32,000 nt of DNA from Candidatus Saccharimonadota bacterium (GTDB taxonomy: Bacteria > Patescibacteriota > Gracilibacteria > BD1-5 > UBA6164). The notes below the pieces were generated by a model. That model worked only from the letters and a program-made list of their open reading frames with translations. It ran no database searches and was not told the DNA's origin. The DNA lies in NCBI GenBank assembly GCA_963677765.1, contig OY782392.1:600001-632000 (forward strand). The letters are read 5' to 3'. A program made the translations under genes and the position numbers. Positions 1 to 32,000 of this stretch are shown piece after piece. Position 1 is the stretch's first letter. The number at the start of each line of letters is the position of its first letter.

Positions 1-2136
1 TTAAGATATGATTACTCATATAGGTTTTATGATGACTTTCATAATAATACTAACAGTACTATATACTTTAACAACTATAGTGTTGATTTTATAAACTGAT
101 CTTTCTTAGATTCAGGTTGATCTTTTTGATGGACAAATAATATTGCAAATAATTGATATCAATTATGATCAAGATCAAGTACTAGGGTATTAGAAACATC
201 TGCACCAAAATGGAGAATTGATTCAAAACCTTCTTCAAGAACTAATTGAACAAGAAATAGTTATGATTTCGGTATAGAATATACTATTGCATATGACTAT
301 TCTAATAATTATCCAGATTCAAGTGATGATTATTCTCATAAGGAATGTGTTTATTATAGTGTAACTTGGTGTTGAGATGGTGTATTAGATAGCTCTTATG
401 AAACTTGTGATTATAATGATCCAAATCAATTATGATGGTGAACAGGAGGTTGTAATACTAGTTGTGAACCTATAAATGATACAACTTCAAGTTCAAGTTC
501 GTCTAGTTCTTCTAGTTCGTCATCATCTAGTTCGAGTAGTTCATCTTCAAGTTCTAGTTCATCTAGTTCATCATCATCTAGTTCAAGTTCGTCTAGTTCT
601 TCTAGTTCGTCATCATCTAGTTCGAGTAGTTCATCTTCAAGTTCTAGTTCATCTAGTTCATCATCAAGTTCAAGTAGTTCTTCTAGTTCTTCAGGTTGAT
701 CAAGCTCTTCAGGTTGAAGTAGTAGCTCATGATGATCAAGCTCTTCAGGATGATCTAGTAGCTCATGATGATGAACTCCAGATACATTTTGTTGAGATTG
801 ATCAGTTCAAAGACCTAGTAATAATCCTTATTCTTGTGTTACATGATATGATTCTACATGAAATCCTATTAATTGAGAATGTTATGAATATATTTTAGAA
901 GAATGTGATTATTGATCTTGAACATGGCCTTCTTGGTGTTGAGCTCCATGAACTTCGAGTCAATGTAAAATTACATGAGAATTATCTTTTCCATGAACTG
1001 GTGAATTAATATTTTGACCAGAGGATAATGTTACAATTTGAGATTGAATGAACCCATATTTTACTTATTCTCTTAGTAAACCTTATATTAGAAATAATTC
1101 GTCTTTTGATTACCATTTTGATGAATTATGTGTAGTTAAAAAATCATGAAATACTTTGGATTGAAGTACTACATGTCAATCTATGCCAGATATATTATGA
1201 GCATGACAAACTTATTATTTTACTAATTATCCTATATTAGTTTGAAATACAAGTAGTTTAACAGCATGAACTTATGATGATAATTTGGTAGTTACAACAT
1301 TGAAAAATGATGGTAGATTATATGATGATGCTTTCTTTGCAGCTGAATTATGAGTTAGAGTTTCTAAACCTAGTATAGCTACAACATGATGAGGTACTAG
1401 TTTTCTTAGTTCTACTGATTGAATATCTAATGTAAGTGTTGTTACAAATAATAAATCTAATAGTGATGAAAATAAAAACTTTGTATGATTAGGAGTTTCT
1501 ACATGAGATATTTCTAGTTATTCAGATGAACTTAATGATTCATCTTCTATAGATTTAGTTAAACAAGAATGAGATGACTATAGTATAAAATCAAACTCTA
1601 ATTCTGAGTCTACATGAATTACATTAGCAACTTCTAATAGCTTATCAGATTTTGAAAGTTATAATTGAATAAGTAATGCTTTTGTTTTGAGGGATACAGA
1701 CTTTATAATTAATTCTTCAACTCTATATTGAGAAACTTGAGTAAGAACATATATAATAGAGTGAGGTAATTTGTTTATAAATTGAAATATATTATATCCA
1801 AGTAATATTGCTTTTGTTGTAAAAGGTTGAAATATTATTATAAATAAAGATGTTTCAAGAATAGAATGAACTTATATTACTATAGCTAATTGAAGTGAAG
1901 GTTGAGATATAAAATCAGACTGAATAAAAACAACTAATACTTTAAATGTATTTTGATCATTGTATTGAAATACAAATGATTTAGTAAATAATAGAACTTA
2001 TATCAAATATAATTCATGATGACAACTAGATGTTTGAACTATAGTTAGTTTTGGTTCTTCTGTTTTTAGACAGCCAGCACCATTGACATCTACTTTTATA
2101 TCTGAATATATGGATAGTATAAAAATTTCTAATTAA
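1..2136 (+). CDS. Secreted/surface protein (5' end outside window): two Myxococcus-type cysteine-rich repeats, a 69-Ser + (GGSSSS)4 linker, and a beta-rich C-terminal region
   Basis: Frame 1 has no TAA/TAG from base 1 to TAA 2134-2136 (checked codon by codon) and contains dozens of in-frame TGA. CGDGVLDSSYETCDYNDPNQLGWGTGGCNTSCE (370-471) and FCGDGSVQ...LEECDYG...WCG...QC (790-966) fit the CGDG..(E/T)CD..GC..C repeat pattern (TIGR02232/DUF4215-like). Function is inferred only. Confidence 0.75.
487..774 (+). repeat. Poly-serine coding tract: 69 consecutive Ser codons (487-693) followed by (GGSSSS)x4 GGG. It contains a perfect 2 x 90-bp tandem duplication (about 491-580 and 581-666).
   Basis: Direct reading of frame 1. 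Mixed AGT/TCA/TCT/TCG codons. The 90-bp period is also visible in the off-frame ORF-track peptide (30-aa unit repeated). Confidence 0.9.
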
Positions 2137-4954: not shown

Positions 4955-6256
4955 TTATTTTTTAGTAAAAAATGATTCTATTAAATTTCTATATACCATT
5001 CTTTGTTTTAATTCTTCATAGTATTTAGTTCAAGGAACATATAATTCTTTTAATCTATTTAAAACTTCTTGGTTTTCAAATTTAGACATTATTTTTTCTA
5101 TTTCTTTTTTCATTTCTTCTTCAGAAATATCAGTTTTTTCAATCTCAGCTAATTTATGTAAAATTAATTCACCTTGAAGTCTTTTTAAAGCTGTTTCTTT
5201 TACATGATTTTCTTTGTAATCTTCTTCACTCATTTTTAGGCTTTCTAAGTAATCTGCCATTTTTATATTTTGTGAAGTCATGTTTTCTTTTATTTCAGAA
5301 AATACTTTTTCAATTTGATTTTTTAATAGATTTTCTCAAACTTCTAATTTTGAAACTTTTAATAATTCATCTATTAATTTACTTTCTTCTTCTATTCTGG
5401 CATTAGCTTCTTTAGTTTCTTTAATTTCTTCTTTTATAAGTTCTTTAAAACCATCTAAGTCTAATTTTTTACCTCTTAATTGTTCTATGAATTCTTCTGT
5501 AAACTCAGGTTTAACAGCTCTTTCAAATTTTTTTATTGTAACTTTAAATTTAGTTTTTTTGTTAGCAAAATCTGCATTGTGATAATCTTCAGGAAAATTA
5601 ACATCAATTTCTAGTTCATCATCTAATTTTGCTCATACTAATTGTTCTTCAAATCAAGGAACAAGTATGTTTGAACCTAAAACTAAAGGATAATCTTGCA
5701 TCGAAGTATTATCAAGTAATTTATCATTTTCAAAACCTTGAGTATCGATAGTTGCTCTATCTCACATTTTTAATTTTGATCTTTTATCTGTAACTTCTTC
5801 AAATTTTGTAAATCTTTTTTCTATATCTTCTAATGCTTTTTTAACTTCATCTGCACTAACTTTTATTTCAGTTTTTTCTAAAGATATATCTTTGTATTTT
5901 TTATCAATTTCTACTTTAGGTAAAACTTCAATATGAATTTTTATTTTTAATGGTGATTGAGAAATTATTTCTTTAATTATTCATTGAGCAACAGGAATTA
6001 ATTTTTCTTCTCTTATAGAATCTTTATACATTTTATCTATAGAGTAATCAATAGCCATTTTGTTTATATGGTCTTCTCCATATTGTCTTAAAATTACATC
6101 TTCTGGTATTTTAGAACCTTTTCTAAAACCTTTAACTTCAGCATTTTCTTGTAAATGTTTTAATGCATTTTTTCTTGCTTTTGCAACATTTTCAGTTGAT
6201 TCTTCAACAACTAATTCAACTATAGAATTTTCTAAATCTTTTCTAGTTATTTTCAT
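4955..6256 (-). CDS. tig: Trigger factor
   Basis: 433-aa table-25 ORF (frame checked for TAA/TAG). The N-terminus MKITRKDLENS...VKGFRKGSKIPEDVI carries the ribosome-binding GFR.GK.P signature. Length and domain order are typical. Confidence 0.9.
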
Positions 6257-6335: not shown

Positions 6336-7469
6336 TTATTTTTTTATTTTTATATCATAATCGAAACTGTCAAGTTCTTGATTATATATGTATTTTATTC
6401 AATAATCGTCATATTGTTGATAATCTTCTACATAGTAGTCTAAATATCATTTATTGAATAACTCTTCTTGATCTTCTGCATTTCTTCAATTATCATTAAG
6501 AAATTTTTTATTAGCTTTCTCAATGTATACTAAATTTAACTCACGACTTGCTTTGTAAATATAATTAAAACATTCTCTAGTTTCTGATTTATCATTTTCT
6601 AATTCTTTGTATGGTCATATTGCTTGTTTTGTAGTATTTGAAATAGTTTCAATTAATTTGCTGTCTAATTCTATATTTCAATTTAAGAATACTCATACTC
6701 ATATGTTAGTCATTTCATTTGCTAAAAATGAACATATTTCGTTGTTAGCTTCGTTTGTTGCAAGTGATAAGTTTAAAAACATAAAGTAAGACTTTTCTCT
6801 ATCTCATCATTTTCATTGCATTATCGCTGCCATTACTTTTGCTCAACTAGGAGAATCTTTTGCAGTTCAGGCTATTTTATAATATAGTGCAGATGATTTT
6901 GCATCCTTTAAATATTGATAATAATTGAATGCTAAATAGTATGCAGGTTTGTATGATTTACATACATCTTGAAATTCTTTATCTGTCCATAAGTTTTCTA
7001 AATTATTAACCATTTCAATTTTTTCAATTTTTTCTTTATCACAAAAATAATCTACTCATTTTTTTCATATTGTTATTGCTTCATCTATATGTTTTTTTTG
7101 CTCTTCATTATTTAAATTTTCATATCTTGGGTTATAATCTGGTAGTAATAATTGTGTTATTACATAAGGGTGTTCAAAATAAGGATTTATATCTGTTACT
7201 AAATTTGTTATATGAAATAAGTATTTTTTATATTCGCTATGAAAAGCATTAGATCATATATATTGTATTGTTTGAAGCCAATAATAATCAGCTTTTAAAT
7301 TTTTAAATCAAAAAGATGTTATTTTTGCTATTTCACTTTTTGGTAAATTTTCTGGGTGATTAATTAATTCTTTTTTTATTTCTTTTTGTTTTGTATAGTT
7401 TTGTTCATTTATTTTCCAAAATGAAAAAATACTTATAAATAAAAAAATAATTATTAATATTTTTTTCAT
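6336..7469 (-). CDS. Hypothetical N-terminally membrane-anchored protein, TPR-like helical repeats
   Basis: 377-aa table-25 ORF (checked). MKKILIIIFLFISIFSFW signal/anchor, then ADYYWLQTIQYIG and AYYLAFNYYQYLKDAKSSALYYKIAGTAKDSP...GGDREKS, which read as TPR-like. An alternative upstream ATG at 7499 is less likely. Confidence 0.65.
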
Positions 7470-7488: not shown

Positions 7489-7980
7489 TTAAATATCATC
7501 TCAATCTATATCTATTGTAAGTTTTTCATTTACTTTACATATAAATAATCTTCTTTCTTCTCATTCTCAAATACTTTTTGTATAAATTTTTTTGTTATCA
7601 TATTCAGAAACAATAGAATGAATTTTTTTTCTTTCATATGCATTATAATATGGTAGCCTTAAATCGTTTCAAGATTTTTCTACATATGATATTTTTTCTA
7701 AAATTAATTTTTTTAATCTTTCATCCTTTGATTCTACATAGTCATTAACTTCTAAATAGACTTTTAATCTATCTTTAGAAAGTTTATTTATCATGAGTTT
7801 TAATATATTTGATATATTTGATAAATTTTTTCAACTAGGTCAAATTACTAATCATGAGTCACTAGTTTTTAATTTTATATAAAATATATTTAAGTCTTTT
7901 TCTTCTATACTTAAATCTTCTACATCAACTCATAAATTATAAAAAAATTTTTCTGATAAATCTTTTATTTTTTCTAACAT
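7489..7980 (-). CDS. khpB: RNA-binding protein KhpB/Jag (KH + R3H domains)
   Basis: 163 aa. GLVIGPSGKNLSNISNIL (KH GxxG loop) and LPYYNAYERKKIHSIV...TKSIGEGEERRLFI (R3H). Confidence 0.8.
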
Positions 7981-26288: not shown

Positions 26289-27281
26289 ATGAAAAATAAA
26301 GAGAAAATAAATATTGTAACTATTTGATGATGAAATGGTAGTTATTGATTATTATCAAGTATAAGAGATAATGAAAACTATAATATATCAGCAATTATTT
26401 CTATGAGTGATAGTTGATGATCTACAGGTGTTCTAAGAGAAGAGTTCAATATATTACCTCCTTGAGATGTAAGAAGATGAATAATGGCTTTATCTCGTGA
26501 ACATGAAATAGTAAAAAAATTATTTGATTATAGGTATGATAAAGAATGTAGTGTATGAGGTCATAGTTTAGGTAATTTAATAATTACTGCTATGGCTGAT
26601 ATTACATGAGACTTTGATAAGTGATTAAAGCAAGTATCAAGAATGTTCAAGGTAAAAGGTAGAGTTATACCTGTTACATTAGAATTATCTCATTTAAATG
26701 TTAAACTAGAAGATTGAACTCTTGTAGAATGAGAAACAAATATTGATACAAAACTTGATGAGAAAAGTTCTCCAATAAAAAAAGCATTTTTAACTCCAGA
26801 TGTAGTTGCAAATAGTAAGGCTATAACATCAATAAATAAGGCAGATTTAATTATTATATCATTTTGAGACTTGTATACCTCTATTGTTCCAAACTTGCTA
26901 GTAAAGTGAATAAAAGAAGCTATATCTAGTAATAAAAAAGCCAAAGTAGTATATTTTTGTAATCTTATGACTAAGCCATGAGAAACTACAGATTTTGAAG
27001 CTATAGATTTTATTAATGTTATAGAAAAGTATTTATGAAAAGATATACTTGATTATGTAATTGTTAATAATTGATATATATCAGAAAAAATGGCTGAAAA
27101 ATATAAGTCATTAGAAAATAAAAAACCTGTAAAAATAAAAAATCAAAAATATTTTAGAGGTAAATCTTATAAAGTTATTGAAGCTGATTTATTACATGAA
27201 AACTCATTTGTTCGTCATAGTTATGATAAAATTGATAAAGTTATCAAAGATATTATAAAACAATTAAAAATAAAAAGTTAG
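26289..27281 (+). CDS. yvcK: YvcK/CofD-like gluconeogenesis-factor family protein (UPF0052)
   Basis: 330 aa. IVTIGGGNGSYGLL, AIISMSDSGGSTGVLREEFNILPPGDVRRGIMALS, GHSLGNLII and DLIIISFGDLYTSIVPNLLV motifs. Confidence 0.85.
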
Positions 27282-27309
27282 ACAATTTATAAATTGTCTA
27301 ACTTTTTTT
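27277..27309 (+). terminator. Rho-independent terminator after yvcK
   Basis: GTTAGACAATTT (27277-27288) pairs with AAATTGTCTAAC (27291-27302), followed by T7. Confidence 0.8.
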
Positions 27310-27332
27310 CTAACTCAATTATAAATTATAAT

Positions 27333-27360
27333 TTTACATATTTTTATAAAATTATATAAT
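27333..27360 (+). promoter_or_regulatory. Candidate promoter of the 1124-aa secreted-protein gene
   Basis: TTTACA (27333-27338), 16 nt, TATAAT (27355-27360). The predicted start falls about 27367, at the first TATCTCCCAAAA repeat. Confidence 0.45.
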
Positions 27361-27365
27361 TTTAG

Positions 27366-27398
27366 TATCTCCCAAAACACATAAACTATCTCCCAAAA
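27366..27398 (+). promoter_or_regulatory. Two exact 12-nt direct repeats TATCTCCCAAAA, 21 nt apart, in the predicted 5' leader
   Basis: 27366-27377 and 27387-27398. CTCCC stands out in otherwise A/T-only intergenic DNA. The repeats end 27 nt before the ATG. Confidence 0.35.
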
Positions 27399-27425
27399 AT
27401 TATTTTATTCATTAAAAATCTTAAT

Positions 27426-30400
27426 ATGAAAAAGATTTTTTTGTTAATACTATCATGTATAGTAATGTTTTTATTAGGGAATAATGTTAGTGCAAATGAT
27501 AATTATTATAGTGATTCATGTTGATATTATATAGAAAAGGAAGAAACTGATTATATAAATAATAATCCAACACAAGAGTTTTATATTTGAGATAATTATC
27601 AATCATCATATATAACAAATGATTATATATATTTATCATACATAGAATATAATCAAGAACCTTTACTAATGAATAATAATTCTAACTCAAATGGAGTATT
27701 AAAAAGAATTAATCATAAAAATGGTAATATAATAAAAAAAAATTTAAACTATATAAATGATTTTAATAATAATATATATAATATATTATTTATAGAAGAT
27801 TGATTTATATATTATCAAAATGAATGATCAATATATAGAATAAGTGAAGAATGTTGAGATATTAACTTAAAATGAAAAGAAATATATAAATTAGAGCTTT
27901 TGTTTTTTAATATATACAAAGAAAAATATCTTTTTTCAGATGGAAAATATATTTATTTTGAAGTAGAAAATAATATTTATAGATTTGATTATATAAATAT
28001 ATGAAATTTAGAACTAGTAGAAAATATCGATACTAGTATAGCTAATAATATACTATTCAACTCAGAGATATTATATTATTTAAATCATATTTACTATAAT
28101 AGTAATTGAAAACTATATAAACAATATATAAAAAATTGAACAATATTAGAACCAGAAGAAATATATAATGAGGAACTCAAGTTATTTAATATAAATGAGG
28201 ACTATATATTTTTTTTAGAACAAGATGCTGACATAGAATGATATATAACAAAATATATAAAAAATGATTGATTAGATAGAGAAAAAAAATTATTTTATGA
28301 ATGATATCTGGAATCTTGAATTATGCTAGAGACAGGATTTATATTTTATGAAGTTATTGATGAATGATTAAATGATGAAATTCATTATATATCTTTTGAT
28401 AAACCTCTAGAATCTACTAAAATATTAGATGAATATTATGATATTTATTATTCAGATAAGGAAAAAATATTGTATAATGAAAATTGATATGTAAAAACAA
28501 AATTATTAAATCAAAAAAATATCCCAATACCAACAAACTTAAGACAATATATTAAATCACCACTTCTAGAAAAAGAAGAGATAGAACTATGAAGCAGTAT
28601 AGGTAAGTTTCAATCTGGAAGTTGAATAATATTTGAAACAGAAATAGATAATCCAGAATCAAAAGAATTGAAAATAGAAATAGAAATATATGAAAAAATA
28701 TCTTGAAATACAAGAATTTTTAATAGTGAATTTTTAAATGTAACTTGAAAGAGATCATTTGTTATATGACTTGATGCATGAGATTATACTTGGAAGTTGA
28801 GACTAGAAGATACAGATTGAAATACTAGTGATTGGGTAGAATTCAAAGAAAATTGATTAGATACAGATTTTTCTATTTTTGAATGATTTGAACCTTATCC
28901 TTATGGGTTTAGTTTTGTAAATGCAAGTCCTGATCTATCAAAATTAACTTGATGAATAAGTTGAAAAGATTGATTTTTTAAAGATACAAGAGAAAAAAAT
29001 CCTTGAACAAAATGGGAAATAATGGATATGGTTTTTCCAATAGAATCATTTAATTGAGATGAAAGAAAATATTTTGCAGCATTTGAGTCATTGTGATTAA
29101 ATAATGATAATCCTACTATTTTTTCTGATGCTATATGTTTTTGACTTTGAATAAGTGCCTTAACTCAGTATCATAATCCAGAAATATTAGAAAGAAATTT
29201 TCCTGTTTTTAGTAATAATATATGAAATTGATATATTTTTGATAAAATAAATATAAAAAATGATACTAATAATAATTATCAATTAATATGATTAGATGAT
29301 AATTTAAAATCGATTTTAGCATTACAATTATATCAAAAAGAAACTAGTTTTTCTAATAAAAGAAATTATTCTTATACAAATGATACTCCAATAGATGTAT
29401 TAAATAAATTAAAAACTAATCCTTGAAAATATATACTTAGTTTTAGGTGAAAAACTTGATGTAATTTTTTATGAAAATTATGTAAAGATGTTTGACATAC
29501 AGTTATACCATACAAAGTAGAGTGAAACAAAATATATATTTGGGATAATATAACACCATATCCATTTTTTGAAGATAAGGAATGAATTAAAGAAGCATAT
29601 AACCAATATATAGAAATAGATATAATAAATAATAAATATTCAGTAATTTGATATAATCGGGATAAATTTGAAGAAATATGAATTGTATCTATAGATGAAG
29701 CTTTTACTGATAATACATCTGTTATATGATTTAATGATATAGATACTCTATACACTCTTAACTGAAATTCAGATATATTACTTACAGATATCAACTGAAA
29801 TAAAACATGATATAAAAACTGAGAAATATATGAAGAAATCCCTTGAACTAGAATAGTGGTAAACTATGCTTGAGAAACTATAGATAATACATTTAAACAA
29901 ATCTACCTACCACAAAAACTAGAAAACCTAACAATAGAAATAAATGCTAAAGTTGATGAAAGCTATGACCTAATGATAGCATGATGAGACTATTACACAA
30001 AAATAGAATGAATAACTACAGCATCATGACAAACTGATATTTTTAATATATCAAGAGAAAATATTAAAATAGATTTTGATGATAATAAAGCAGAAAATAA
30101 TTCATACAATATACTAGTAGATGACTTCAAAAATAATTGAACCTGAACAGTTATGCTGTGAAATCTAGAAACAATAAATTGAAAACAAGAATTAGATATA
30201 AACTGGATAGAAGTATTAAACAATAGCAATACTGCAGTAATATATTCAAAAGATTTAGACAATGATGGAATACAAGAAACAATAGAAAATCTTAAAGCAA
30301 TACTAGATTATAGTATAGAACCAGAACCAGAAATCTTATCATGAAATATAAGCTGAAAAATATGACTATATCTACCACAAGAAATATGCAAAAAGATATG

Positions 30401-30800
30401 AAATAAAAATTGTAGTCAAATAGTAAAACAACTAGAAAAAGAAATACTAAACAAAACTACAAAACTAATATTAGAAAAACAAGAAGAGTTAGAAGATGAA
30501 ATAGAATGAAATAATAAAAACAAAAATAAAGATAAAAAACAAAATAAAAAATTAAAAGATAAAAACAAAGAAGAAAAACAATATATAGAACTAGATAATA
30601 AATGAAACTATAAAATAGTAGATTTAGAACCATGAATTTATAAACTAAGTTTAGAATTAAAGAAGTGATGGATTACAAAAACTCCACAAACTTGATACTA
30701 TATTCTAGAAATAACTAATTGAGAAAATTATATAGATAAAGATTTTCAGGTTATAAATAAACTTCTAGAACAATTAATTAAGAATTTAAAAATTAAATAA
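27426..30800 (+). CDS. Giant secreted/surface multidomain protein (1124 aa): signal peptide, Tyr/Asn-rich propeller-like repeats, Ig-like module, papain-like Cys/His/Asn region, DxDxDG site, C-terminal Cna-B/SdrD-like domain
   Basis: I read the frame codon by codon from ATG 27426 to TAA 30798-30800 with no TAA/TAG and dozens of TGA. N-terminus MKKIFLLILSCIVMFLLGNNVSA. Repeats such as GFIYYQNEGSIYRIS and GKYIYFEVENNIYRFDY. GDYTWKLRLEDTDGNTSDW. DAICFGLG (Cys 29136), GHTVIPYKVEGNKIYIWDN (His 29496, Asn 29547). C-terminus GNYKIVDLEPGIYKLSLELKKGWITKTPQTGYYILEI. Domain names are inferred. Confidence 0.85.
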
Positions 30801-30819
30801 TATATAATAATAAAAAATT

Positions 30820-31269
30820 ATGAAAGAAAAAATTAAAAATATAGTTAAGAATAGATATTTTAAAATAATAGTTTTTGTATTATTATGATTATTTATACTT
30901 AGAGAATCATATGCGGTTTATATAGATATGTATAACTTTAAACAATTAGAAAAAGCTAAACCATATTTAGAAACAATAGATAAAAATACAAAAAAATTTT
31001 ATAGTTTAAAAGAATTTAATGTAATATATAGTGCTTGAATTAAACCAATTAGAAATTGTTATGATGTTAGTAATTACAATTGAAATGAAAAATATATTTT
31101 TTGATTTAAATTAGAGTCATTAATATATATATATATATATAAAACAAAATATTATGCATATCCTAAATATGATGCTCCATATAGAAATTGGTGTGAAGTA
31201 TGATTAGGTTGTTATGATAAAAATAAAGAAATATTTGAAAGAGTTATATCAAATCCATGTGAAAATTAA
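30820..31269 (+). CDS. Small N-terminally membrane-anchored Cys-containing protein, paralog A (149 aa)
   Basis: MKEKIKNIVKNRYFKIIVFVLLGLFIL (anchor), four Cys in total, C-terminus ISNPCEN*. Contains an in-frame (TA)9 tract (31123-31140) encoding IYIYIY. Confidence 0.65.
31123..31140 (+). repeat. (AT)9 dinucleotide repeat inside paralog A
   Basis: Direct count, positions 31123-31140. Confidence 0.95.
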
Positions 31270-31278
31270 ATAAAAATT

Positions 31279-31765
31279 ATGAAAGAAAAAATGAAAAATA
31301 TAGTTAAGAATAGATATTTCAGAATAATAATTAAATTTTTTATATGATTTTTATTATTATTAATATTGAGTTTTATATTAGTTGCTATATATAGTTTTAC
31401 ATTTGAAAAAGATAAGATAGCAATAGATAGATATAATTTTGAACAGTTAGAAAAATCTAAACCTATACTAGAATCAATACCAGAAACTGATAAAAATTTT
31501 TATAGTTTAAAAGAGTTTAATCAAAAATATAGTGCTGATATACAACCAATTAAAAATTGTTATTATATAAGAAATTATAATTGAGATGAAAAGTATATAT
31601 TTTGATTTAAACTAGAGTCATTAATATATATATATATATAGAACAAATTTATTTGCATATCCTAAATATGATTTACCTTTTGTTCCAATGTATTATTCAG
31701 GTTGACCTTGAGATAGAAATAAATCTAAATTTAAGTATACAATTTCAAATCCATGTATAGATTAA
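31279..31765 (+). pseudogene. Paralog B of the small anchored protein, interrupted by a -2 frameshift in its (TA)8 tract (TAG at 31639-31641); the conserved C-terminus continues in the frame shifted by the missing TA unit to TAA 31763-31765
   Basis: The 5' part is colinear with paralog A (MKEKMKNIVKNRYFRIII..., YNFEQLEKSKP, FYSLKEFN, NCY, NYNGDEKYIFGFKLESLIYIYI). After the TA tract, the homologous AYPKYD...ISNPC(I/E) segment is out of frame by exactly one TA unit (34 vs 36 nt between TTA and GCA). Confidence 0.6.
31624..31640 (+). repeat. (AT)8+A dinucleotide repeat inside paralog B, one unit shorter than in A
   Basis: Direct count, positions 31624-31640. Confidence 0.95.
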
Positions 31766-32000
31766 TAATAAATAAATTAGAACAAAATAGATATATATCC
31801 AAATCAAACAATAATTGAATTAATTTGAGAATGAAACCCTACAGTACAAACAAGTAATTGAACAAGAAGTAAAGACTGAACAGTTAGGTATGGAAGAAAT
31901 ATAAAAGCTACTATACCTCCAATATGAGAAACAAGAATAATAGAATTTAAAATAAATTGAGAATCATGATTTTTTACTATTATAAGGGAATAGATTATAT

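Follow-up and report, generated by a model that had tools for sequence, protein, structure and literature searches.

Paralogs A and B are two small tandem genes near the end of a 32,000-nucleotide stretch of DNA, hereafter the window, from Candidatus Saccharimonadota bacterium (Gracilibacteria, BD1-5; assembly GCA_963677765.1, contig OY782392.1, positions 600,001 to 632,000 of the forward strand). Why is A read through to its natural end, when B meets a stop codon inside a run of TA dinucleotides and its remainder follows, uninterrupted, in another frame? The original prediction, made from the letters of the DNA, was that the run is a slippage-prone switch and that these genes undergo slipped-strand phase variation. 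This proposal is supported by the analysis of related sequences, in which frameshifts cluster at the tract, go in both directions and always change the length by a multiple of 2 nt. Through slipped-strand mispairing, an intragenic (TA)n tract probably generates ON (full-length) and OFF (frameshifted) alleles of small anchored proteins, the putative partners of a giant secreted protein that is encoded directly upstream.

Paralogs A and B and their TA tracts

The tracts of A and B (Table 1) are both 100% pure, without interruption. From the preceding TTA codon to the start of the conserved GCA-TAT-CCT, there are 36 nt in A and 34 nt in B, and at the tract the alignment of the two DNA sequences has one indel only, of 2 nt. 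B stops at TAG because its tract is shortened to (AT)8. With (AT)9, it would read through to give a product colinear with A. Restoring one TA unit in B yields a protein of 162 residues that is 56% identical to A (BLASTP E = 2e-54). The tail of B, read in the +1 frame from 31640, is RTNLFAYPKYDLPFVPMYYSGGPGDRNKSKFKYTISNPCID (RTNLFAYPKYD...ISNPCID); it has two TGA codons, read as Gly, and no internal stop. The original prediction proved exact to the base in its description of A (its length, its IYIYIY tract and its four cysteines, which the analysis places at C80, C124, C130 and C147) and of B (the (AT)8 tract, the spacing and the TAG). Its claim of an intact, displaced C-terminus using TGA as Gly was likewise borne out, down to the final TAA.

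Table 1. Position of the small-protein genes, their tracts and adjacent features in the window
Feature	Position	Strand	Description
Paralog A, ON	30820-31269	+	149 residues, code 25; ATG 30820, stop 31267-31269
(AT)9 tract of A	31123-31140	+	reads ATA-TAT three times (IYIYIY), directly after TTA 31120-31122
Paralog B, N-terminal part, OFF	31279-31641	+	120 codons from ATG 31279; premature TAG 31639-31641
(AT)8 tract of B	31624-31639	+	directly after TTA 31621-31623; runs into the TAG
Out-of-frame tail of B	31640-31765	+	+1 frame; stop TAA 31763-31765
Giant secreted protein gene	27426-30800	+	1124 residues, code 25; signal-peptide-like N-terminus MKKIFLLILSCIVMFLLGNNVSA
Promoter-like site	27333-27360	+	TTTACA-16-TATAAT, 11/12; upstream of the giant gene
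Inter-copy-like DNA	31766-32000	+	blastn 75-80% identity to inter-copy spacers of loci L064, L008, L011 and L037

The reading of TGA as Gly (genetic code 25) by the organism of the window was confirmed at universally conserved glycines, TGA occupying the position X in DTP-X-HEAF of IF-2 and in VR-X-VLD of S12. The N-terminal product of B matches a database protein of 120 residues (P0045). The database entries of the window proteins, P0001 and P0045, are translated with TGA as Trp (code 4) although the organism uses Gly, and many other entries of the family are shortened by code-11 gene calling. Public annotations of this small-protein family are therefore unreliable.

An ON orthologue of B exists (P0019, loci L065/L066). 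It carries (AT)9, so that B is one unit short of it. The tails of the two differ at 2 of 38 aligned residues, and comparison with L065 reveals 2 synonymous and 2 nonsynonymous changes. Within the 32-kb window, (TA)n runs of at least five units occur only as the tracts of A and B. A 16-nt TA run is matched three times, with overlap, at these two sites, whereas 0.00 matches are expected from 100 dinucleotide-preserving shuffles.

Full-length B could in principle be made from the (AT)8 allele by programmed recoding, through ribosomal frameshifting or transcriptional slippage. In its favor, B has an intact tail and a repetitive shift site, on which polymerases or ribosomes could slip. However, the orthologues of B and most members of the family are simply in frame, and the OFF alleles described below need corrections of +2, -2 and +4 nt, which no single mechanism supplies. 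The zero-frame TAG of B lies inside the tract, and this sequence does not correspond to any known slippery heptamer. Slippage during transcription is an established phenomenon on homopolymeric A/T runs, but not on TA dinucleotides. Recoding is an extremely improbable explanation.

Tract length in the family and in near-identical strains

Related loci were fetched from species-representative genomes (36), from JGI metagenomes (23) and by exact protein look-up (10). The N- and C-terminal halves of the small genes were located with two hidden Markov models on code-25 six-frame translations. Among 54 database homologues, nine end or leave the frame exactly at the tract. The frameshifts were then tabulated for 98 unique copies of the family. 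The 22 copies with a TA run of at least 15 nt comprise 13 ON copies, 8 with a frameshift at the tract, one with an in-frame TAA and none with a divergent C-terminus. The 76 copies with a shorter run comprise 62 ON copies, one with a frameshift, none with an in-frame TAA and 13 with a divergent C-terminus. Considering only the systematic scans, which avoids ascertainment bias, 4 of 17 long-run copies are frameshifted versus 1 of 76 short-run copies (Fisher p = 0.0036). Without the window, the counts are 3 of 15 versus 1 of 76 (p = 0.013). The shifts at the tract amount to -1 unit in four alleles, +1 unit in three and -2 units in one; none is odd-numbered in bases. Pure TA runs among the tract-bearing homologues measure 15-24 nt.

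Three cases depart from the simple pattern. The sole short-run frameshift (L036 / L051, 325-700) lies at a TATATAT run, with 2 nt missing compared to the family frame and an intact tail. In L002 (1618-1962), a 23-nt TA run ends in an in-frame TAA, giving LIYIYIYI followed by the stop, with the tail in frame 0. This TAA arose by a point mutation that lengthened the tract, or else it is an error; slippage cannot repair it. L022 (STC_119) contains two identical copies, at 6016 and 7691, both OFF by -2 units with a 15-nt run. They stem either from an OFF allele that was duplicated recently or from collapse or duplication in the assembly.

In all nine frameshift alleles, the tail is kept in the shifted frame and ends in ISNPCxx and a stop, except that the allele of L063 leaves its contig still open. 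Pooled comparison of the OFF tails with their closest ON relatives gives 13 synonymous and 10 nonsynonymous changes, i.e. a ratio of nonsynonymous to synonymous changes per site (pN/pS) of 0.18, from small counts. To judge from these substitutions, this ratio is not what long-standing pseudogenes would give. The original prediction had set against itself the case of a simple pseudogene gathering further lesions. For a long-dead pseudogene, this is disfavored, as the OFF tails are intact and look constrained.

The original prediction had also called for a comparison with related metagenomes, and there three sets of near-clonal strains do differ, essentially at the tract alone. L060 (ENA, OFF) and L040/L061 (JGI, ON) have 0 mismatches over 3498-3516 nt and a 2-nt gap at the tract, L060 having one unit fewer. 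L062 (ENA, OFF, +1 unit) and L037 (JGI, ON) have 0 mismatches over 4093 nt and one 2-nt gap. One gene was found in three states: (TA)10, OFF, in L008, a metagenome-assembled genome (MAG) from NCBI; (TA)11, ON, in L068 and L069, from two SRA runs; and (TA)12, OFF, in L067, from a third SRA run. These four loci, from independent datasets, differ by 0-2 mismatches over 1-1.9 kb. A neighboring 24-nt tract (L008 copy 1) is invariant in L008, L068 and L069, and L067 starts just after it. In the 90% cluster of P0026, the ON form is present on 9 contigs, and two +1 OFF forms come from ENA and JGI. The tract is hypermutable across natural populations, and the series n-1, n and n+1 in near-clonal strains fits frequent two-way switching, not one-way decay. 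A single-gap difference between L055 and L056 was tried as a control and was rejected as a contig-end artefact, with no simple sequence repeat (SSR).

Tracts of this kind are rare elsewhere. In about 452 kb of related loci, nearly all of 18-36% GC, (TA)n runs of at least six units were found 26 times at the tract site of the family and 3 times elsewhere, the latter all of 13 nt or less. It was considered whether the tract-bearing loci are merely the most AT-rich. Their mean GC content is 21.6%, versus 25.1% for the rest, but the ranges overlap, so that composition alone does not explain the tract.

Several observations weigh against a switch, and some of them would fit a mutational hot spot without switching function, where the OFF copies are young pseudogenes of redundant paralogs. 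The tract encodes an Ile/Tyr helix in the preferred codons of a genome of about 22-24% GC (ATA 62%, TAT 84%), and codon usage predicts a pure IYIYIY tract with a probability of about 0.14 per copy. In a column-wise control of purity, conserved Ile/Tyr columns off the tract also rarely switch codon. ON alleles predominate, with 12 of 17 in the unbiased scans versus one-third expected under free switching, and such an excess would also be produced by recurrent deleterious mutation together with purifying selection. The OFF copies are often, although not always, non-first in multi-copy arrays, where redundancy would tolerate loss. The TAA of L002 is irreversible by slippage. The repeat of classical contingency genes is more often near the 5' end, whereas it lies here two-thirds into the gene.

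Other observations speak against a hot spot. None of the nine independent frameshift alleles carries a second lesion, and their tails have the low pN/pS given above. The gene that toggles between L060 and L061 is a single-copy gene right after the giant gene. In near-clonal strains, one and the same gene occurs with n-1, n and n+1 units. The IYIYIY peptide is dispensable in the family, where just the final Tyr is nearly invariant and LIYKFIY, DKYKNKY, LFNMFIY or other sequences take its place in many copies; the tract is nonetheless retained by sub-families that share no more than 49-70% identity in their N-domains. Apart from this site, the related genomes have hardly any long TA tracts. A hot spot devoid of switching function is considered unlikely.

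The remaining points against a switch concern the data, and several of them are also arguments that the OFF alleles are technical artefacts (stutter in the polymerase chain reaction, sequencing, assembly or polishing errors), with B really in frame. The tract lengths compared are those of assembled sequences of relatives, and the strain of the window is represented in the databases by one contig each for P0001 and P0045. The ENA/JGI pairs might be re-assemblies of the same reads, in which case their differences would reflect read heterogeneity or the choice of the assembler. According to the contig names, the coverage of some OFF contigs is low (2.5x for L015, a k-mer coverage of 0.27 for L063, 8.9x for L022), so that a few OFF calls could be errors. 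(TA)n is also the dinucleotide repeat most prone to stutter in vitro.

However, the OFF calls were made in assemblies of different runs by SPAdes, MEGAHIT and Logan, and also in NCBI MAGs. Expansions by one unit are nearly as common as contractions, whereas stutter mainly produces contractions. The adjacent 24-nt tract does not vary among the three loci that include it (L008, L068 and L069), and a consensus error requires the wrong length in the majority of the reads. The assembly of the window is not indel-prone, since eleven long open reading frames (ORFs), covering 20 kb, are all intact despite containing 36 A/T homopolymers of at least 7 nt. A one-off polishing error, which the original prediction had named as a way to be wrong, is disfavored by the number of assemblies and datasets and by these intact ORFs. 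A technical origin is very unlikely, although more conceivable than recoding.

The small protein, the giant gene and their arrays

The search of databases for the family returned 54 homologues. Every one with a named source is from Gracilibacteria, and none has a Pfam domain. An exhaustive profile search yielded 147 clusters (50% identity) among 1.84 billion representatives. No significant match to the small protein was found by sequence search in Pfam, NCBIfam or PDB, and no match to its fold was found with Foldseek in PDB or BFVD. On this basis, the family appears to be specific to Gracilibacteria, with members of about 145-165 residues.

The N-terminus of A is rich in Lys and Arg and is followed by a hydrophobic helix (anchor or signal), then by a globular domain. 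A structure was modeled for the correctly translated NCBI homologue P0004 in place of A or B. The AlphaFold model (pLDDT 92, pTM 0.81) consists of a long N-terminal helix (residues 2-46), the first part of which is a hydrophobic anchor flanked by Lys and Arg, and of a compact α/β domain. The segment encoded by the tract, YLYIYIY, forms a short helix (residues 96-102). The N-terminal membrane anchor that had been proposed for A is thus supported by both the sequence and this confident model. Two cysteines are invariant in the family, C80 and C147 in the numbering of A, and the tract-coded segment sits between them. An OFF product would consequently lack the C-terminal strands, the last helix and the last cysteine. 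The small proteins are predicted to comprise an N-terminal helix anchor and an extracytoplasmic, disulfide-bonded globular domain. Exposure at the surface is tentatively suggested by the Lys/Arg-rich N-terminus, the hydrophobic helix, the long N-terminal helix of the model, the invariant cysteines and the adjacency to a giant protein with a signal-peptide-like N-terminus.

The gene of the giant protein lies 19 nt upstream of A, and A is separated from B by 9 nt. The giant protein has no sequence match in Pfam, NCBIfam or PDB and no known domain. The position of the small genes directly 3' of the giant gene, from which the original prediction had drawn a functional association, is a lasting one: in nearly all related loci, the small gene is immediately preceded by a homologue of the giant gene. 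The absence of any terminator-like site between the giant gene, A and B makes one operon likely, and the three genes are probably co-transcribed, as judged from their layout. The promoter-like site upstream of the giant gene is the sole good one. Promoter-like matches overall are not more frequent than in shuffled sequences, so that this consensus match alone is weak evidence. A hairpin at 27272-27307, with a 16-bp palindromic stem and a T-run that makes it terminator-like on the minus strand, divides the upstream gene (26289-27281) from the operon of the giant protein; no other terminator-like site occurs in 27200-32000.

The array probably extends past the end of the window. The DNA downstream of B resembles inter-copy spacers, and a third protein of the family, P0067 (ON), is listed for the 1.05-Mb contig from which the window is taken. 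In many arrays, the giant gene and a small gene are followed by an orphan C-terminus of the giant gene (residues about 824/896-1124), then by another small gene, and so forth. Orphan copies of the giant C-terminus are found between small genes in L001, L005, L006, L024, L053 and others. Those of L001 are at 5328-5957, 6441-7145 and 7609-7917. Some of the orphan fragments have no start codon until late in the frame.

Arrays differ in their arrangement. In L065/L066 (Logan contigs), from a close relative, the order is giant gene, B-type (ON), A-type, opposite to that of the window for A and B, which indicates that the array was rearranged between strains. The tail of L063 is identical to that of L001 copy 2, but the N-halves differ (synonymous pS 0.31). 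L001 copy 1 is a close relative of B in the window in the N-half, but not in the tail. Since the N-half of a copy and its tail are closest to different relatives, recombination is suggested in or near the tract and its highly conserved flank.

Three other observations were made on these sequences. A fusion of the giant and small proteins (a "Rosetta stone") was suspected in L032 and rejected, as a separate start and anchor are present in the small gene of that locus. L032 is a 286-kb contig labeled as a Hyphomicrobiaceae MAG; it has 53% GC, reads TGA as Gly, and carries a member of the family and a homologue of the giant protein. The contig is probably Gracilibacteria-like, with an unusually high GC content, and mis-binned. 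At the other end of the window (1-2136, plus strand), a partial large ORF encodes about 65 serines in a row, then (GGSSSS)n. It includes, in the region 490-692, a perfect 90-nt tandem duplication (490-666, 2.0 copies, 100% match). The product of this ORF is probably secreted and could vary in length.

Proposed switch, known systems and meaning

The switch would operate as follows. In one sub-group of the family, the helix segment (L/Y-IYIYIY) is written as a pure (TA)n tract, to which replication slippage would add, or from which it would remove, TA units. Only one tract length in three leaves in frame the C-terminal third, with the invariant last cysteine, presumed partner of Cys80. Loss of one unit would lead to an immediate TAG or TAA, and gain of one unit to a stop after a short nonsense extension. 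Each copy would thereby flip between ON, with the full domain, and OFF, truncated. In the genome of the window, A is ON with (AT)9 and B is OFF with (AT)8; B would be restored by the gain of a single unit. As an array contains several copies, the cells of a clonal population may differ in the set of giant-protein partners that they express, with attachment to host cells and escape from phages or host defenses as plausible uses. Four of the features by which contingency loci are recognized are present: a pure intragenic SSR above the roughly six dinucleotide units from which such repeats are unstable, a change of frame, repeat polymorphism in near-identical relatives and intact OFF tails. Beyond these, we infer reversibility, switching within the population of the window, an adaptive value and a biological role.

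The closest known systems share the principle of this switch. In Helicobacter pylori, oipA (hopH) and related outer-membrane genes are turned ON and OFF at the level of translation by slipped-strand mispairing in intragenic CT repeats (PMC10564699). As in the family described here, the dinucleotide SSR is in the ORF, the frame is shifted by units, ON and OFF alleles are distributed among strains, and the genes belong to a paralogous family. OipA is a surface protein that interacts with the host; a likeness of A and B in this respect is predicted. The repeat differs in nature and position, as CT units in the 5' signal-peptide region of oipA contrast with TA units two-thirds into A and B, where they code for a helix of the folded domain. 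As the tract is late in the gene, an anchored N-terminal fragment would be left in the OFF state. The organisms are also dissimilar: a diderm pathogen with the standard code for oipA, an uncultured code-25 Gracilibacterium for A and B. There is no sequence or structural relationship between the proteins.

In Mycoplasma mycoides subsp. capri, 12 AG repeats in the coding region of the Type III methyltransferase M.MmyCI lead to a premature TAA (PMC3498834). The resemblance lies in a small, AT-rich, reduced genome with a reassigned TGA, in which the length of an intragenic dinucleotide repeat decides between the full protein and an immediate stop. M.MmyCI is a DNA methyltransferase (phasevarion-type) encoded by a single gene with an AG repeat, whereas A and B are predicted membrane-anchored proteins encoded in a tandem array next to a giant gene. 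Tracts of the TA unit itself, of about 9-12 units, control by slippage the expression of surface structures in the fimbrial promoter hifA/hifB of Haemophilus influenzae and in Vmm of Mycoplasma mycoides. There, (TA)n forms the spacer between the -35 and -10 elements and acts on transcription, whereas the tract of A and B is translated and acts through the reading frame.

Within the lineage, Sieber et al. (2019, mBio) described a hypervariable PTD-repeat surface protein of a Gracilibacterium and discussed slipped-strand mispairing (PMC6851277). That organism likewise belongs to BD1-5 / Gracilibacteria and uses code 25, and the protein is N-terminally anchored, predicted to be extracellular, repeat-bearing and variable in the population. 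It belongs to another family that is not linked to the giant protein described here, and it contains a long array of 9-nt units with synonymous variation, without frameshift, ON/OFF alleles or TA tract.

The arrangement of the arrays recalls polymorphic toxin, contact-dependent inhibition (CDI) and Rhs loci, where orphan C-terminal cassettes are followed by small cognate genes. Both have a large secreted gene, a small gene and repeated units of a 3' fragment and a small paralog. Unlike in toxin loci, the C-terminus of the duplicated part of the giant gene is conserved rather than hypervariable. No toxin, immunity, Rhs/YD or CDI domain was found in the giant or small proteins with Pfam, NCBIfam and PDB, PADLOC not having been searched. 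Moreover, the small proteins are predicted to be membrane-anchored, with disulfides, and are probably phase-variable, whereas an essential immunity gene should not be phase-variable.

SSR-based phase variation characterizes pathogens that are adapted to a host, among them Haemophilus, Neisseria, Helicobacter, Campylobacter and Mycoplasma. The PTD-repeat protein aside, no report on phase variation, contingency loci or slipped-strand mispairing was found in full-text searches of the literature for the Candidate Phyla Radiation (CPR/Patescibacteria), in agreement with the statement in the original prediction that such variation had not been described for code-25 CPR bacteria. What is new is the lineage and the gene family, not the mechanism; the architecture of the array is unusual. 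This is a candidate for the first contingency locus in CPR.

A wider reading is that the giant protein, its tandem anchored partners and the orphan C-termini together constitute a CPR-specific module of surface variation, in which slippage switches the copies and recombination at the tract flank reshuffles their halves. The mosaic similarity of N-parts and tails would then arise because the highly conserved DNA around the tract serves as recombination junction. This reading is doubtful, if slightly less so than a hot spot without switching function. If true, it would provide an episymbiotic or predatory Gracilibacterium with a combinatorial, heritable and reversible repertoire for host attachment or phage evasion, i.e. 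an antigenic-variation-like system in an environmental ultra-small bacterium.

The slipped-strand switch itself, which is the likely explanation of the A and B alleles, has more immediate consequences. If it is correct, "truncated" members of the family should be annotated as switch states, not as errors or dead genes. The ratios of tract lengths in existing read sets and time series would be a cheap marker for population dynamics. CPR bacteria are uncultured and ultra-small, and their dependence on hosts has been deduced mostly from the absence of genes. A contingency locus in a lineage-specific surface module would constitute positive genomic evidence of fluctuating selection on the cell surface, whether by host attachment, phage receptors or competitors, and it would name concrete candidate genes for these interactions: the giant protein and its small partners.

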